This document shows positions 565-33,053 of a stretch of DNA of 64,000 bases, one piece after another. The position numbers and the translations under genes were made by a program. Source of the stretch: Pelotomaculum sp. GTDB taxonomy: Bacteria; Bacillota; Desulfotomaculia; Desulfotomaculales; Pelotomaculaceae. The stretch is taken from assembly GCA_018435055.1 (NCBI GenBank), contig JAHDOA010000007.1:31853-95852 (forward strand), written 5' to 3'. Numbering within the stretch: position 1 is the first letter of the stretch; each line of letters opens with the position of its first letter. Under the pieces are notes generated by a model, which saw nothing but the letters and a program-made list of their open reading frames with translations, made no database searches and was not told the DNA's origin.

Positions 565-593
565 CGTGTCAAGGGGATGGTTCTCTTGACACG
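565..593. repeat. REP-like hairpin, copy 1 (intact)
   Basis: CGTGTCAAG-GGGATGGTTCT-CTTGACACG, perfect 9-bp stem; core shared with 1115-1143, 1856-1870, 5413-5429 and 57340-57368. Confidence 0.85.
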
Positions 594-641: not shown

Positions 642-944
642 TTAAAGGCTGTTTTTTTCATAAAAGCTCTCAAGAGCCTCTAATGTTTTTCTGGTGTTAT
701 TCATCATAACTATTCCCAAATTCCATTTACCATGGAGATTACCCGCACTTTTCATAAAAGCCGCATCATAAAAATCATTGTATAATCTTCTCCTTAAATG
801 GTTGATATAATTATTTACCTGACTAAGTATATCTTCATTAGTCTTACCTTCAAATAAAATACCTCTAATTACTAGTGATATTTTCTTGTTAGCCTGTTTT
901 ATCACCGGTTTAAAAAAAGACTTAACATATGTTATTAATCCCAA
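642..944 (-). CDS. hypothetical protein (AT-rich)
   Basis: 100-aa ORF, TTG start with AAGGTGA RBS; no family recognised. Confidence 0.55.
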   Translation of the reverse strand: MGLITYVKSFFKPVIKQANKKISLVIRGILFEGKTNEDILSQVNNYINHLRRRLYNDFYDAAFMKSAGNLHGKWNLGIVMMNNTRKTLEALESFYEKNSL

Positions 945-1038
945 CTATATCATCACCTTTGTTTAAACATCTTTGGCTATATTTTAACATATTACCCTGG
1001 CTAAATTTGTCAATACTAGCCAGTGCCATTCATCCTGT

Positions 1039-1084
1039 AAAAAAGCTTCCTGCATACCTAATAGATGGTAAGCAGGAAGCTTTT
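1039..1084 (-). terminator. intrinsic (probably bidirectional) terminator after GNAT gene
   Basis: AAAAGCTTCCTGC...GCAGGAAGCTTTT stem with A/T tracts on both sides. Confidence 0.7.
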
Positions 1085-1114
1085 ATTGGTAACATATAAG
1101 AACTTCACTAAAAT

Positions 1115-1143
1115 GCGACAGGAGAGAACCGTCCCCTTGACAC
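1115..1143 (-). repeat. REP-like element, copy 2
   Basis: minus strand GTGTCAAGGGGACGGTTCTCTCCTGTCGC; inverted relative to copy 1. Confidence 0.8.
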
Positions 1144-1180
1144 AAAGGACGGACACGACTTATTTGCACTTACAGAGCAA

Positions 1181-1657
1181 TCAGAGATTTTTAAGCATTT
1201 GATAATAAATCAGTTTTATATCTTTTCCCACATCAATATATTTTTCTGCCTGTGTAACATATCCCAGAGAATCATAAAATCTTTTTGCTGTCAGTGATCC
1301 TGACAAATCAACAGCTTTTTGTCCCTCATTTGAAGCCCTGTTTTCCAACTCCTTCATGATTAATTTTCCGAGACCATGCCCTTGATAACATTTATTAACG
1401 AATACCCGCCTGATATTTGCACCAAGCAGTGTCCCAGTTCCAACAATTTCTTTTTCCAACTCCGCAATAATCGTATAACCGTTGAGGTAATCGTCATATA
1501 TGTTTTCTTTACAGTGATATTGTTTGAAAAAGCGTATCGCCTCTTCCGGATAAACACTGGTATACGATTTATCTATTGTATCCATCACCAGGATATAAAC
1601 AGGTTCAATATCTGCCGGTTCAAAGATTCTTAATATCACCTTTTCATTAGTTAACAT
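1181..1657 (-). CDS. GNAT family N-acetyltransferase
   Basis: acetyl-CoA motif A VFVNKCYQGHGLGK and C-terminal AKRFYDSLGY; AGGGGTGA RBS. Confidence 0.9.
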   Translation of the reverse strand: MLTNEKVILRIFEPADIEPVYILVMDTIDKSYTSVYPEEAIRFFKQYHCKENIYDDYLNGYTIIAELEKEIVGTGTLLGANIRRVFVNKCYQGHGLGKLIMKELENRASNEGQKAVDLSGSLTAKRFYDSLGYVTQAEKYIDVGKDIKLIYYQMLKNL

Positions 1658-1775
1658 AAAAGCTCTTCACCCCTTTAGAACCGGCTGACCGGCGACAGGA
1701 GAAAAACCCCGGCCTGAGCCGTGTGTTTACTGACGACTGCCAGAAACTGATGTGTTTAATGCCTTTTTCCACAAA

Positions 1776-1850
1776 GGGCCGTGGTAGTACAGCTATTACT
1801 TCCACGTAGGGCTCTTTCATCCCCTGCCCTATGCCGGTTTATCCCGGCGT
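1776..1850 (-). mobile_element. 5' remnant of a group II intron RNA (domain I start), copy A
   Basis: minus strand ACGCCGGGATAAACCGGCATAGGGCAGGGGATGAAAGAGCCCTACGTGGAAGTAATAGC...CCACGGCCC resembles the GTGCGCCGGG...GAAGGAGTAGC...GGCCCC start of bacterial group II introns (recognised from memory); no RT ORF or domain V. Confidence 0.6.
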
Positions 1851-1855
1851 CTTTC

Positions 1856-1870
1856 GAACCGTCCCCATGA
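1856..1870 (-). repeat. REP-like left arm, copy 3 (right arm apparently displaced to 1692-1702)
   Basis: TCATGGGGACGGTTC; TCTCCTGTCGC at 1702-1692 is identical to the continuation in copy 2. Confidence 0.6.
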
Positions 1871-1996
1871 TCCCCCACACCCCAACCGGGTGTGTTTTTG
1901 TTTGATATTGGTTTTCCTAGTAGCAAAATTTTTATTTACATAAACAATTAAATGGGTATATAATTTACACAGCTAACTATAATGGAAGTGAAGTAA

Positions 1997-2437
1997 TTGA
2001 CTGATAATCTGATTTCTACTTTTGAAGAATTTGAACGGCTGTTAAAGTCAGTCTGGCAAAAATATCACCGGTATGTTGTGCCGGACATTTGCGGTCTTTC
2101 CCCTGTTCAGCTCTTCCTGCTGAAGTATGTACACGACAGAAAAGTCTGCAGACCTTCCGAAATCGCCATGGAGTTCGGGGTTACTCTCGGTGCGGTAACA
2201 GGTTTAATTGACCGTTTGCTCAAACTTGATCTCGTGTACAGAGAGCGCACCGAAGAGGACCGCAGGCTGGTATTAATCAGGTTAACTACCAGGGGAATGG
2301 ATACTGTTAAAGATTTTGACTTGCAACGCCGGCAAAAATTCACGGAGATTGCTCAAAACCTTGATGATGAAGACCTGGCCCGGCTGCTGCCGCTGATGAA
2401 AAAAATGTGCCTGTCCCTTAATAATTTAAAACACTGA
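1997..2437 (+). CDS. MarR family transcriptional regulator
   Basis: LSPVQLFLL...VTGLIDRLLKLDLVYRERTEEDRRLVLIRLT winged-helix signature. Confidence 0.92.
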   Translation: MTDNLISTFEEFERLLKSVWQKYHRYVVPDICGLSPVQLFLLKYVHDRKVCRPSEIAMEFGVTLGAVTGLIDRLLKLDLVYRERTEEDRRLVLIRLTTRGMDTVKDFDLQRRQKFTEIAQNLDDEDLARLLPLMKKMCLSLNNLKH

Positions 2438-2453
2438 AAAAAGGAGCAGCAAA

Positions 2454-4139
2454 ATGGGTATTCTACAGAGAACTGTCGGCTTAACCATTAATACTGTCGC
2501 CGGATCTTTTTTTAGAAATTTTGTTGCGGACACCCGCCGTGCCTCTGATGTTGAAGAATTAGTATTAATGAATATACTGGCGGACAACAAGAACACTGAC
2601 TTTGGCCTGCGTCACGGATTTGCCGGTATTACCTCCAAGAAAGAGTATAAAGATGCGGCGCCTCTGTCCACATACGATAATTACCGAAAAGATATTGAAA
2701 AATTAGCAGCCGGAGAAACCAATATCCTTACCTCGGAACCGGTAAAATATTTTGGCCTCACGTCAGGAACCACAGGGACCCAAAAAATGATCCCTGTCAC
2801 ACCCCGCTCTCACCGCATAGTAGCGGAACATATGGGTTTGTTAATGCAAGGAGTTTTATTTAATATTATCCCTGATTCCCGCCGTTTTGACCGGGGCTTG
2901 ATGCTTATCAACACGGTCACCTCAGGTTTAACACCGGCAGGCATCCCCACCGGCGCCGGCACCTCCGGCGGAATGCAGTCCATGAAGCGGCTGTTCCCGT
3001 ACCTGTGGACCTCACCTGCTGAAATATTTGAAATTAAAAGCCAGCCAGACGCCAACTACCTGCACCTGCTTTTCGCATTGAAGCATAAAAACCTGATGTA
3101 TATTGGAGCGCCCTTTGCCTCCGCTGTTCTGGAGCTGTTTAAGCAGCTGGAAAAATGTTGGCCCAGGCTGGTCGACGATCTGTCCAGAGGAAGCATAAAC
3201 GAAGAAATTCACCTGGATTTACCTGCAAGACACCGTTTGCAAAAAACCCTCCGCCCGGACCGTGCCAGGGCAGATGAATTAAAAAAGGAATTTGAGCGGG
3301 GTTTTGCCGGCATCGCCCGGCGGATCTGGCCCCGCCTCCTTTATATTAACAGTGTCGCCGGAGGCAGCTTTAGTATCTACGCCAAGAAATTAGAGCAATA
3401 TTTAGCGGGTATACCAATTTACTCTGCGGTCTACGGAGCGACAGAGGTCTTTATCGGCATCAGCCTGGAACCAGGTGAAACAACCTATGTTTTAACACCA
3501 AGAACCGCTTATCATGAATTTATTCCACTTAAATTTGCAGATGAAATCAATCCGCAAACGCTCGATCTTGAAGATTTGACTGTCGGGGAATGCTATGAAG
3601 TGGCTGTAACCAATTTTGCCGGTCTTTATCGCTACCGCCTTGGGGATATTGTTAAGGTCGCCGGCTACTACAACGAGTGCCCGGTAATCGAGTTTCTGTA
3701 CCGGAAGGGGCAACTTTTAAACCTCACAGGTGAAAAAACTTCTGAACAGGCTGTTTGCCACGCAGTCTTTCAGGCAGCGGCACGGACGGGTGTTGAGCTG
3801 GTTGATTACACGACGGTGGCTGACTGTGAGAATTCCCCGGGCCGGTATATCTTTTACGTAGAAGTAAAACTACCGGCGGGCGGCGGCAAAAACCTGCGCG
3901 GCACAGACGTGATTGAAGAAGCCCTCTGCCATGCCAATCCACGCTACCAGGCAGGCCGGCAGGCGGGGAAGATCGGACTGCCCGCAGTTAAGGTCGTCAA
4001 ACCCGGGACTTTTGGGGAATTAGTGAAGATACTCATAAAAAATGGCACATCAGCTAATCAATTAAAGATACCGCGGGTAGTAAGCGCTAAGAAACTGGTC
4101 GACTTTTTAGACCGCAACTGCATTTCACCAGGGAGATGA
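2454..4139 (+). CDS. GH3 family acyl acid-amido synthetase-like protein
   Basis: GH3 motifs: LTSGTTGTQKMIP P-loop, YGATE, LYRYRLGDIVKVAGYYNECP...RKGQLLNLTGEK. Confidence 0.9.
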   Translation: MGILQRTVGLTINTVAGSFFRNFVADTRRASDVEELVLMNILADNKNTDFGLRHGFAGITSKKEYKDAAPLSTYDNYRKDIEKLAAGETNILTSEPVKYFGLTSGTTGTQKMIPVTPRSHRIVAEHMGLLMQGVLFNIIPDSRRFDRGLMLINTVTSGLTPAGIPTGAGTSGGMQSMKRLFPYLWTSPAEIFEIKSQPDANYLHLLFALKHKNLMYIGAPFASAVLELFKQLEKCWPRLVDDLSRGSINEEIHLDLPARHRLQKTLRPDRARADELKKEFERGFAGIARRIWPRLLYINSVAGGSFSIYAKKLEQYLAGIPIYSAVYGATEVFIGISLEPGETTYVLTPRTAYHEFIPLKFADEINPQTLDLEDLTVGECYEVAVTNFAGLYRYRLGDIVKVAGYYNECPVIEFLYRKGQLLNLTGEKTSEQAVCHAVFQAAARTGVELVDYTTVADCENSPGRYIFYVEVKLPAGGGKNLRGTDVIEEALCHANPRYQAGRQAGKIGLPAVKVVKPGTFGELVKILIKNGTSANQLKIPRVVSAKKLVDFLDRNCISPGR

Positions 4140-5314
4140 GCTATATGAAAAATCACAGCAGAGAGACTATAATATTATTTTTTAGTTTATTTTTAGTAAT
4201 GGTCGGCTTTGGCATTATCATTCCGATCCTTCCTTTTTTTGTTACGCGCCTTAACGGCAACGCAACAGCGCTGGGATTTTTAATGGCTTCTTATTCCCTG
4301 ATGCAATTTTTCTTTGCTCCATTCTGGGGAAGACTCTCTGATCGAATAGGCCGCCGTCCTGTTCTCCTCATCGGTTTAAGCGGCTATGGCATAACCTTTA
4401 TTCTTTTCGGCCTTTCAACCCAGTTATGGATGCTCTTTTCGGCCAGAATTTTATCCGGTATAATCTCTTCGGCCACCCTGCCGACGGCCATGGCTTATAT
4501 CTCTGATATAACAGCCAGCAAGGACAGGGCCGGGGGGATGGGAACAATGGGAGCGGCCATGGGCCTGGGTATGATCTTCGGACCTGCCCTGGGAGGATGG
4601 CTTGGCCACTACAGCTTCTCACTGCCGTTTTTCGTCGCCGGGGGCCTTGCCATACTCACCCTTCCATTTGCCTGGTTCTTCCTGACGGAATCTTTAAAGG
4701 AACCGGGTGTAAGTACCCAGGAAGGCCGGCGGCTGTCCCTCGAAATATCTAAAAATCCCCAGTTCCCTCTTTTTTTCGTCGCTTTTGTGGTCAGCTTTTC
4801 CATGGCCATGTTTGAGAGTACCTTTGCCCTATTTGCTGCGGCGAGGGTCGGTTTCGGCCCCAGGGAAATGGGACTTCTTTTTACCGTTATAGGTGTTCTG
4901 AGCGTAATCATTCAAGCAGGTATGATCGGCAGGCTTGTCAACAGGTTCGGCGATGCAATGGTGATTACTGCAGGTATCGTTATTTCTGTAATCGGTTTCC
5001 TCCTTCTCATGGTTGCTCCCAATGCTGCTTTTATAATCGTTTACGCCGGAATATTCACCGCGGGAAACAGCCTGCTGCGGCCCAGTATTTCCACACTGGT
5101 CACCAAGACGGCACGTGAAGAAGAGCAAGGTTCCGCGGTGGGAATAATGCAGTCCTTTGACAGTCTGGGACGTATCCTGGGCCCGGTAACCGGCGGCATT
5201 GTCTTTGATTTTAACATCAACTTCCCTTACCTGCTCGGGATAATGGTATTAATTGCAGTTTTACTCTTTTTCAAACGCCACCAGGCCAATTTTTCGATGG
5301 AATCACGTGCATGA
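4136..5314 (+). CDS. MFS drug:H+ antiporter (TetA/Bmr-like)
   Basis: 12 hydrophobic segments, motif A GRLSDRIGRRPVL; ATGA overlap with the GH3 stop. Confidence 0.92.
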   Translation: MSYMKNHSRETIILFFSLFLVMVGFGIIIPILPFFVTRLNGNATALGFLMASYSLMQFFFAPFWGRLSDRIGRRPVLLIGLSGYGITFILFGLSTQLWMLFSARILSGIISSATLPTAMAYISDITASKDRAGGMGTMGAAMGLGMIFGPALGGWLGHYSFSLPFFVAGGLAILTLPFAWFFLTESLKEPGVSTQEGRRLSLEISKNPQFPLFFVAFVVSFSMAMFESTFALFAAARVGFGPREMGLLFTVIGVLSVIIQAGMIGRLVNRFGDAMVITAGIVISVIGFLLLMVAPNAAFIIVYAGIFTAGNSLLRPSISTLVTKTAREEEQGSAVGIMQSFDSLGRILGPVTGGIVFDFNINFPYLLGIMVLIAVLLFFKRHQANFSMESRA

Positions 5315-5399
5315 ATCTGGGCCGTGGTGGCGCGGCTACTCCTTCCACGTAGGGTTCTCTCATCCCCTGCCCTTGCCATATGCCGGTTTATCCCGGTAC
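5305..5399 (-). mobile_element. 5' remnant of a group II intron RNA, copy B
   Basis: minus strand GTACCGGGATAAACCGGCA...GGGGATGAGAGAACCCTACGTGGAAGGAGTAGCCGCGCCACCACGGCCCAGATTCATGCACG; direct repeat of 1776-1850. Confidence 0.6.
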
Positions 5400-5412
5400 A
5401 GTAGAACGGCTC

Positions 5413-5429
5413 AACCGTCCCCGTGACAC
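5413..5429 (-). repeat. REP-like left arm, copy 4
   Basis: GTGTCACGGGGACGGTT next to intron remnant B. Confidence 0.65.
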
Positions 5430-26888: not shown

Positions 26889-26914
26889 CAGTTTTAATAG
26901 AATATAGCCGCACT

Positions 26915-27086
26915 TAAAATAGTGAACAGGTCGCATTTAATAGCGTTAAAAGGGAAGTCCGGTATGATCCGGCGCGGTCCCGCCACTGTAAGGGGATGAA
27001 CTCTAAAATGTCACTGGTCAGGCTCAGCTGCCGGCCGGGAAGACAGAGCCGTCAAATGACCCTCAGCCAGGAGACCTGCCTGTTCT
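26915..27086 (+). promoter_or_regulatory. cobalamin riboswitch 1
   Basis: AAAGGGAAGTCCGG...CCGGCGCGGTCCCGCCACTGTAA...CACTGG...GGGAAG...AGCCAGGAGACCTGCC (B12 box); terminator-like hairpin at 27166-27197. Confidence 0.93.
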
Positions 27087-27254
27087 TTAATCACTAAAAT
27101 ACCTACGGTTGATAGGTAGTGATTGTTCAGGTCAAAGTTGTTATTACGAAAAACCTGGATGAACTGCCCCGTCCCCGTGTTTTAGGTCGGGGTTTTTGAT
27201 TTATATAAGGCTATGTGCGCATAAATTTTTGTGAGATGAGGATGGTGTTAGGGT

Positions 27255-31436: not shown

Positions 31437-31480
31437 AAGTTGTAGCAAATATTTGACAATTGAGTGATTACTGTTTTACA

Positions 31481-31672
31481 AACCGCTCAATTCTAATAGT
31501 TAGAAGCGGGGGAACCAATCTTTACCGGGGTGAATCAATTCAGTAGTTAGTAGTTAGTAGTCAGTAGTCGAACACCATCTGACAACAGACTACCCACAAC
31601 CGACTACCGAATCGTAGGGCTATTCTTTCAGCCCGAATCCGTCAGCTAACCTCGTCAGCGTTGAAAGGGAAG
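31481..31672 (+). promoter_or_regulatory. c-di-AMP (ydaO/yuaA) riboswitch
   Basis: CCGCTCAAT...GCGGGGGAACCA...GGGGTGAATC...GTAGGGCTA...CCCGAATCCGTCAGCTAACCTCGTCAGCG consensus blocks. Confidence 0.92.
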
Positions 31673-31738
31673 CAGTTTAATTTATATATGCCGCATAATT
31701 CTGCCATGCGCTCATGCATTATATTGCGCGTTCCTTTT

Positions 31739-32665: not shown

Positions 32666-32742
32666 CTGGCCTTTTTTATCCCAACCAATATTTTTTATAT
32701 GGACAAATCTACTGGTTGATGTTAGGATGTTCTTAATTAAAA

Positions 32743-32916
32743 AATACTGTCCAGGTACTCCGGAGATGGAGTGTGAAAAGGGAACCGGGTGCGAATCCCG
32801 GACGGTCAGGCCACTGTATGTGGGGAGCGGCTCCCTTGATGCCACTGGGTTAACGGTTAGCCCGGGAAGGCGGGAGTATGGCTGAGATCCACAAGTCAGG
32901 AGACCTGCCTGGTCAG
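32743..32916 (+). promoter_or_regulatory. cobalamin riboswitch 2 (no credible downstream CDS)
   Basis: AGGT...AAAAGGGAACCGGGTGCGAATCCCGGACGGTCAGGCCACTGTA...GCCACTGGG...CCCGGGAAGGC...AAGTCAGGAGACCTGCC. Confidence 0.92.
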
Positions 32917-33053
32917 TTGGTACCGCCTTCCGTGTAAAGGCCGGGCTGTTTTTTGTTTTTCACAGTGTTTTAGCTTTGGGAAACCCGGATTTCTCAGCGA
33001 AGGAGCCGGGTTTTCCATTTGTCTCCTTCTTCCAAAATCATTTTATTTTATTT

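Follow-up and report, generated by a model that had tools for sequence, protein, structure and literature searches.

The group II intron RmInt1 (PMC4238363) homes into ISRm2011-2, as other introns home into multicopy mobile DNA. The targets of bacterial group II introns fall into three styles, namely long homing sites, terminators and attC sites (PMC4424553). Introns of class IIC insert after terminator hairpins or attC (Robart et al, 2007; Leon & Roy, 2009; PMC4424553), where they lie downstream of the whole hairpin and use an IBS1 of 3-4 nt and no EBS2 (PMC4424553). Classes IIE and IIF are recognised by a 5-nt domain V loop, a ribozyme of 450-700 nt and an IEP without an En domain (Nagy et al, 2013; PMC3753933). 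The 5' splice site of C.te.I1 of Clostridium tetani is shifted, with alternative splicing of the host gene (McNeil & Zimmerly, 2014; PMC4024640). Finally, REPs are known as landing pads for REP-targeting insertion sequences (Tobes & Pareja, 2006; PMC1525189), and a P. putida group II intron has 2 of its 9 copies at REPs (PMC1525189).

We analysed a window of 64,000 nt, corresponding to positions 31853-95852 of contig C36 in a 3.28-Mb, 70-contig Pelotomaculum sp. genome (G000, to which contig numbers given alone refer). An earlier note on this DNA had proposed that a REP near the start of the window is split by the 5' remnant of a group II intron; the observation holds, and its interpretation is largely supported. 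On the minus strand, the apical REP core GGGGACGGTTC (1866-1856, within which lies the GGACGGTTC of the note, 1864-1856) and a REP 3' arm variant, TCTCCTGTCGC (1702-1692), are separated by 153 bp (1703-1855) that begin with GAAAGACGCC. The first 80 nt of this insert (1776-1855, minus strand) comprise a 5' terminal hairpin and the first domain I stems, and end in ...CCACGGCCC. They are nt 1-80 of an intron lineage that we call lineage B, and the REP core is the 5' exon, with an exact 5' junction between the two. Over approximately 90 nt (1776-1866), the sequence is 85-91% identical to bona fide intron 5' ends in seven sister-genus genomes (G014, G017, G016, G012, G019, G035 and G029), and these matches always start at the REP core and always end at or past ...CCACGGCCC. 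In nhmmer searches against profiles of those introns the stub scored E-values of 6.1e-20 and 1.1e-20, and a full-length intron profile (1939 positions) matched it at positions 6-79 only. The window copy has no EBS1 loop, domain V, domain VI (with its branch A) or AY 3' end. It is therefore an intron fragment without a catalytic core, and inert; presumably the stub has no present function.

Rfam returned nothing for the stub at the gathering threshold, and neither RF00029 nor any other group II model matched window positions 1000-2100 at E <= 10. This silence reflects the shortness of the stub, since the Rfam model starts approximately 38 nt into the element and the window copy retains only about 45 of 225 model positions. 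The check by covariance model that the earlier note had suggested thus fails on the stub itself and succeeds on its full-length homologues, which continue into RF02005 matches of 137-172 bits, with domains V/VI.

The repeat that received the intron is a genuine REP of the RAYT type, being a short imperfect palindrome in tens to hundreds of copies, with inverted REPs around a Y1 gene. Allowing one mismatch, the 3.28-Mb genome contains GGGGACGGTTC at 159 sites. At 79 of them it caps an intact hairpin whose 12-bp stem carries the loop ACGGT; occupied and partial copies exist besides. The commonest form is CGTGTCAAGGGG-ACGGT-TCTCTTGACACG. The arms differ among copies (GTGTCAA, GTGCCAC, GAGACAA, GCGACAG and others) with complementarity kept and the apex constant. 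G-T pairs at stem positions 1 and 3 restrict good folding of the hairpin to this strand. All of the copies that we inspected individually lie between genes. The genome contains eight matches to PF01797 (Y1, IS200-like transposase), and the Y1 gene at C54:35500-35832 is flanked by two REPs upstream (plus strand) and two downstream (minus strand), giving the inverted doublets of the RAYT/REP arrangement. Such RAYT-like loci with inverted doublets occupy C54:35275-36300 and C5:1-1300, and in the latter the REP upstream of the Y1 transposase gene holds a sister intron, intron A, described below. As a separate observation, two REPs on C39 (near 40794 and 35861; L080 5730-5810) share an insert of about 68 nt immediately behind GGGGACGGTT; it has no Rfam match, and beyond it lies a REP-like unit whose loop is altered.

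Two further REPs lie close to the split one. An intact REP of the same family, with the core GGGGATGGTTC (565-593, plus strand) was found by reading and by the genome-wide core search, and an unsplit REP, copy 2, was read directly as GTGTCAAGGGGACGGTTC-TCTCCTGTCGC (1115-1143, minus strand); its 16-mer GGTTCTCTCCTGTCGC is unique to it in the genome. At the split REP, the core is preceded by a degenerate 5' arm, GGGGGATCAT (1867-1876, minus strand; compare REP variants with ...GTCAT and ...ATCAT arms), which lacks complementarity to the 3' arm CCTGTCGC, so that the two REP halves form no hairpin together. The arms of copy 2 are likewise mutually mismatched. Adjoining the REP half of the stub there is a hairpin, CACACCC-CAACC-GGGTGTG (1876-1894), with a T run behind it. 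The loop of this hairpin is similar to the complement of the REP loop, and the structure may be either a terminator or a degenerate REP.

The insert starts with GAAAG, which the earlier note, expecting GTGCG, had put down to decay or to a call that was partly wrong. Decay has to be given up as the reading, since the same start is found in at least 120 copies in several phyla, and GAAAG is the native 5' end of lineage B. All of the copies in the family begin GAAAG(C/T)(G/A)CC directly after GGGGAC plus 5 nt. In a one-genome-per-species scan of public genomes (L128-L207), the start GAAAG(C/T)(G/A)CCGGGATAAACCGGCATAG was found at at least 120 loci, in Desulfobacterota, Nitrospirota, Syntrophomonadales, Desulfotomaculaceae and others, and with few exceptions the 5' exon consisted of GGGG(A/T)C and 5 further nt. 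When aligned by eye on the first hairpin, GAAAGCG occupies the place of GUGCG, with the U at position 2 replaced by AAA.

Full-length relatives with a reverse transcriptase ORF, another check that had been suggested, do exist. L135, L144, L130 and L160 are approximately 1935 nt long with an ORF of about 1380 nt, and the full-length members of the lineage encode an intact reverse transcriptase (P0001; RVT_1, 9e-43) with a YADD motif, in which Pfam sees RVT_1 only. Full-length members of lineage B and intron A score 156-172 bits with RF02005 and 41-50 bits with RF00029 (domains V/VI). In G029 the match runs through to domains V/VI and a 3' end of ...CCUACCGCGAU, followed by TCTT. The lineage ends in ...CCGCGAU or ...GAC, in agreement with the AY rule; its 5' end, GAAAG, departs from the GUGYG consensus. 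ORF-less GAAAG miniatures that retain domains I, V and VI were also seen (L077, G029:C24:11750-12400, about 350 nt; L145, L146 and L150, 670-800 nt). In the present genome no intact lineage B copy was found. Elsewhere, the GAAAG type has moved recently, as at least four copies in a Syntrophomonadales MAG are 99.6-99.9% identical and lie on different contigs. Our literature search turned up neither this 5' end nor any homing of E/F-type introns to the tips of REPs; the Zimmerly database or Simon et al (2008), which lay outside that search, may already list a GAAAG start.

What fixes the 5' junction of these introns at N6|GAAAG is covariation: the six exon bases before GAAAG (IBS1) pair and covary with a loop at intron nt ~185-195 (EBS1). 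Among 27 distinct IBS1/EBS1 combinations, 17 are fully paired (6/6), and the mean is 5.48 of 6 pairs compared with 3.16 for mismatched partners. Examples are CGGTTC with GAACCG, CGTTCT with GGAACG, CGGGGT with ACCCCG, CACACC with GGTGTG, CCTGGG with CCCAGG and TGCCAC with GTGGCA (IBS1 and EBS1, respectively). The GUGCG-start introns of the same Rfam type have the same EBS1 loop. At the window REP, IBS1 is the last 6 nt of the core, CGGTTC (1861-1856), so that the exon-binding site of the relatives, GAACCG, does pair with the REP, a check that the earlier note had suggested. For EBS2-IBS2 we found no such support: UCACCC, which lies in the single-stranded stretch after CGAAA in lineage B, does not covary with the A/T at exon position -7, and neither does the UCCC that follows CGAAA in intron A and forms 4 bp with GGGA.

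The sister intron uses the same site and is still alive. Intron A starts with GUGCG, is 1910 nt long and has the EBS1 GAACCG, the exact complement of CGGTTC. In this genome it sits at GGTTC|TC(T/C)TGACACG in 10/10 5' junctions and 10/10 3' junctions, filling this position at least ten times, and it is the EBS1-IBS1 pairing that accounts for all ten copies being at one REP bond. Ten contig ends (C3, C13, C22, C26, C31, C45, C48, C59, C61 and C65) carry the 5' junction ...GGGGACGGTT(C/T)|GTGCGCCACGAGG..., and ten others (C4, C5, C22, C26, C34, C35, C40, C45, C59 and C61) read from domain V/VI (RF00029, 50.2 bits) through ...CTACTCGAT|T(C/T)NTGNCNC.... All 20 stop approximately 120 nt into the intron, the interior of which is absent from the assembly; indeed, intron A is a main cause of its fragmentation. 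Whole copies of 1910 nt, with GGTTC and TC(T/C)TGACACG on their two sides, are present on metagenome contigs L255 and L256, and a third metagenome contig has the same 5' junction. The copy on L255 scores 156 bits with RF02005 and 50 bits with RF00029, and its ORF of 460 residues encodes a reverse transcriptase that has the YADD motif. The IEPs of intron A and lineage B are 40% identical. Intron A is thus a living intron that uses the split point of the window REP, and this REP position is used by two lineages.

Lineage B and intron A both fit an E/F-like class, an assignment made by matching them to published criteria rather than to labelled class E or F sequences. Their domain V loops are of 5 nt (UAGUU in B and UAAUA in A), their sizes (1935 and 1910 nt, respectively, including an ORF of about 1380 nt) are as described for IIE/IIF (PMC3753933), and in the IEP of lineage B Pfam sees RVT_1 and no En domain. 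They are not IIC introns, since IBS1 is 6 nt long and the insertion lies inside the hairpin, not after it. In both this genome and the Syntrophomonadales MAG, the first two nucleotides of the 3' stem arm precede the insertion point, which is between GGTTC and TC or at the corresponding bond. In the MAG, copies with both flanks give the site as GCATCACGGGG-ACAGT-CC|CCGTGATGC, again the loop plus 2 nt of a REP-like hairpin. The suggestion of the earlier note that an intron lineage homes into this REP family is thereby borne out in Pelotomaculum and its relatives, and in Syntrophomonadales the introns take the same position in REP-like hairpins. Exon positions -11 to -6, GGGG(A/T)C, are nearly invariant even in phyla in which no clear hairpin was seen, which makes recognition of the sequence certain. 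A further step, that two E/F-like lineages, one of them GAAAG-ended, are dedicated to the apex of RAYT-type REPs and that the extruded hairpin, in addition to the 6-nt IBS1 and the conserved GGGG, is part of what they recognise, we regard as tentative and on balance doubtful. If it were true, it would add a fourth target style to homing sites, terminators and attC, and structured targets of this kind would not be limited to class C introns.

These results are best explained if a group II intron of class E/F-like type once retrohomed into the tip of a REP hairpin, was later mostly deleted and survives as 1776-1866 (minus strand), a reading to which we give a probability of roughly 0.88. The EBS1 loop (GAACCG) of an E/F-like intron ribonucleoprotein would have annealed to CGGTTC at the hairpin tip, and reverse splicing would have placed the intron at the bond that joins GGTTC to TC, two nucleotides inside the 3' arm. 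Later deletion or rearrangement would then have taken everything past nt 80, that is, most of domain I, the reverse transcriptase ORF and domains V/VI, leaving the 80-nt stub beside its 5' exon, 73 nt of other DNA and the REP 3' arm. This order of events, insertion followed by loss, is what we infer. Incomplete reverse transcription starts from the 3' end of an intron and could not have produced a 5' stub, so that a later deletion or rearrangement must be responsible. The non-complementary arms, seen also in copy 2, fit recombination among REPs or intron copies.

The 73 nt between the stub and the REP 3' arm (1703-1775, minus strand) contain a small GC hairpin and, after it, a run of T. They had no homologue by BLAST over 36 family genomes and no match to the 1939-position full-length intron profile with nhmmer --max at E <= 100. 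A shorter nhmmer profile extended the stub match to approximately 1730, at posteriors of 0.2-0.7, an extension that the full-length profile did not reproduce. This segment is neither the intron 3' end, nor domains V/VI, nor any other detectable part of an intron, and a simple internal deletion cannot explain the whole insert. Of the 153 bp, only the first 80 are demonstrably intron. At the far end, the 3' arm variant TCTCCTGTCGC (1692-1702, minus strand) is shared as a 3' arm with copy 2 and with a REP on C9. The genome holds seven copies of it where 1.56 would be expected, three of the seven in a REP context, and on these statistical grounds it is likely to be the original partner half of the split REP.

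The main alternative concerns this last point. The stub would still sit at its own REP 5' half, but TCTCCTGTCGC would be the orphan arm of another REP, reached when a deletion or recombination extended past the intron into adjacent DNA, and the picture of a 153-bp insert in one split REP would be partly illusory. The failure of the 73-nt segment to match any intron part and the non-complementarity of the 5' and 3' arms are both as expected if this were so; moreover, orphan or duplicated REP 3' arms are common, being found beside intron A 3' junctions and on C44 and C49, and the region is rearranged relative to another genome of the genus, G028. Against it, the 11-mer is rare, with just those seven copies in the genome, the only other junction of GGTTC with TCTCCTGTCGC lies approximately 570 bp away, and the join restores that REP variant exactly. 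We therefore regard an orphan arm as possible but the less probable of the two origins.

Comparison with the same genus could not supply the unoccupied site. The same-genus search found no orthologous empty site: in G028, the neighbouring DUF188 and MFS genes are present and window positions 819-1931 and 2017-4144 are absent, and a genome without the whole of 819-1931 offers no empty site. At that locus (L254; G028:C114), DUF188, a REP, a promoter and MFS are directly joined, compared with 606-771, 819-1931 and 2017-4144 of the window, and what G028 lacks is the GNAT gene, REPs and stub included, as well as most of MarR plus GH3. AT-rich look-alikes at 772-818 and 1932-1975 form the edges of the first extra segment. 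Further into the window there are two cobalamin riboswitches (112 and 123 bits; 26911-27097 and 32736-32926) and one c-di-AMP riboswitch (89 bits; 31474-31674).

The window contains a second stub of the same lineage (5303-5396, minus strand), which covers profile positions 8-95 and is 82% identical to the first (nhmmer E-values of 2.4e-18 and 7e-19). Its first 7 nt have been replaced, and upstream of it, as read and as recovered by the core search, is a REP 5' half, GTGTCACGGGGACGGTTG (5412-5429, minus strand). Both stubs have the derived bases GGGCAGGGG in common, where relatives have GAGTAGGGG. The far end of the second stub overlaps the stop codon of an MFS gene (4136-5314, plus strand) and, since the stub runs antisense across the end of that gene, the stop codon (5312-5314) lies in intron-derived sequence. 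Further fragments of this lineage, extinct here, are found at C5:99648-99829, C5:36920-36972 and C9:78055-78090.

One could imagine that the conserved 80-95 nt were retained for their structure as RNA or DNA, for example as a GNAT leader or as a recombination site to either side of MarR-GH3-MFS. Indeed, the two stub regions (1776-1866 and 5303-5429) have the same orientation and bracket the GH3 operon with its MarR and MFS genes, the first lies upstream of the GNAT start, and the region folds somewhat better than shuffled sequences (z = -2.7). However, the second stub lies between convergent genes and so cannot be a leader, no promoter-like site was found in the insert (1703-1855), and the other fragments of the same intron are scattered on C5. 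Since descent from the intron explains all of the similarity, we consider retention as such an element improbable. Still harder to sustain is a functional, ORF-less miniature intron spliced in trans by the protein of its sister: the ORF-less derivatives with domains V/VI (L077, L145, L146 and L150) give it a precedent, but the window copy, with no EBS1 loop, domain V, domain VI or AY 3' end, is without the catalytic core, and this refutes it. An IS200/IS605 end or omega-RNA was dropped for want of support once the intron homology was found, and a MITE, a riboswitch or leader and a pseudogene fragment were considered and rejected.

Having arisen, in our preferred reading, by retrohoming and later loss, the stub is ordinary debris, and its value lies in exposing a parasitic targeting system with three layers: a Y1 transposase with its REPs, the hairpin tips of those REPs and the group II introns that enter them. 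Introns that are not IIC are found at one REP bond in 10 of 10 copies, a regularity that is explained by base pairing and lies outside the three styles of PMC4424553. There are practical consequences also. These introns break short-read assemblies, as the 20 contig ends in intron A illustrate, and boundary-finding pipelines that expect GUGYG may miss a GAAAG 5' end. The widespread GAAAG lineage, in Desulfobacterota, Nitrospirota and Firmicutes, is moreover a natural test of how far a group II ribozyme needs GUGYG.

How does this system compare with those already described? It resembles RmInt1 in that an intron without an endonuclease exploits a multicopy selfish element as a safe, repeated site, which it recognises by EBS-IBS pairing; the target here, however, is a 29-nt REP and not an IS gene. 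As in C.te.I1, EBS1-IBS1 pairing determines the 5' splice site, which does not fall at a canonical GUGYG, yet here a whole widespread lineage has the fixed 5' end GAAAG. The association of the P. putida intron with REPs was partial and unexplained, whereas here it is 10/10, at one phosphodiester bond, and pairing explains it. With IIC introns there is a shared liking for a small, repeated intergenic hairpin present in many copies per genome, and a shared lack of an endonuclease domain in the IEP; in contrast to them, the present introns lie inside the hairpin (loop plus 2 nt), have a covarying 6-nt IBS1 and match the RF02005 fold, not that of IIC. The closest likeness is to the class E/F introns, such as Pe.th.I2 of Pelotomaculum thermopropionicum, Ge.ur.I1 and Sy.wo.I1 (PMC3753933; Toro & Martinez-Abarca, 2013, PMC3552965), in a ribozyme of approximately 530-555 nt without the ORF, a 5-nt domain V loop, an endonuclease-less IEP and a 6-bp EBS1-IBS1 pairing directly 5' of the splice site; indeed, the GUGCG-start introns of a closed genome of 3,025,375 bp (G013) match the same model, RF02005. 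From these the lineage of the stub differs in starting with GAAAGCG instead of GUGCG (U2 replaced by AAA), and in having as its homing site the apex of a multicopy REP hairpin.
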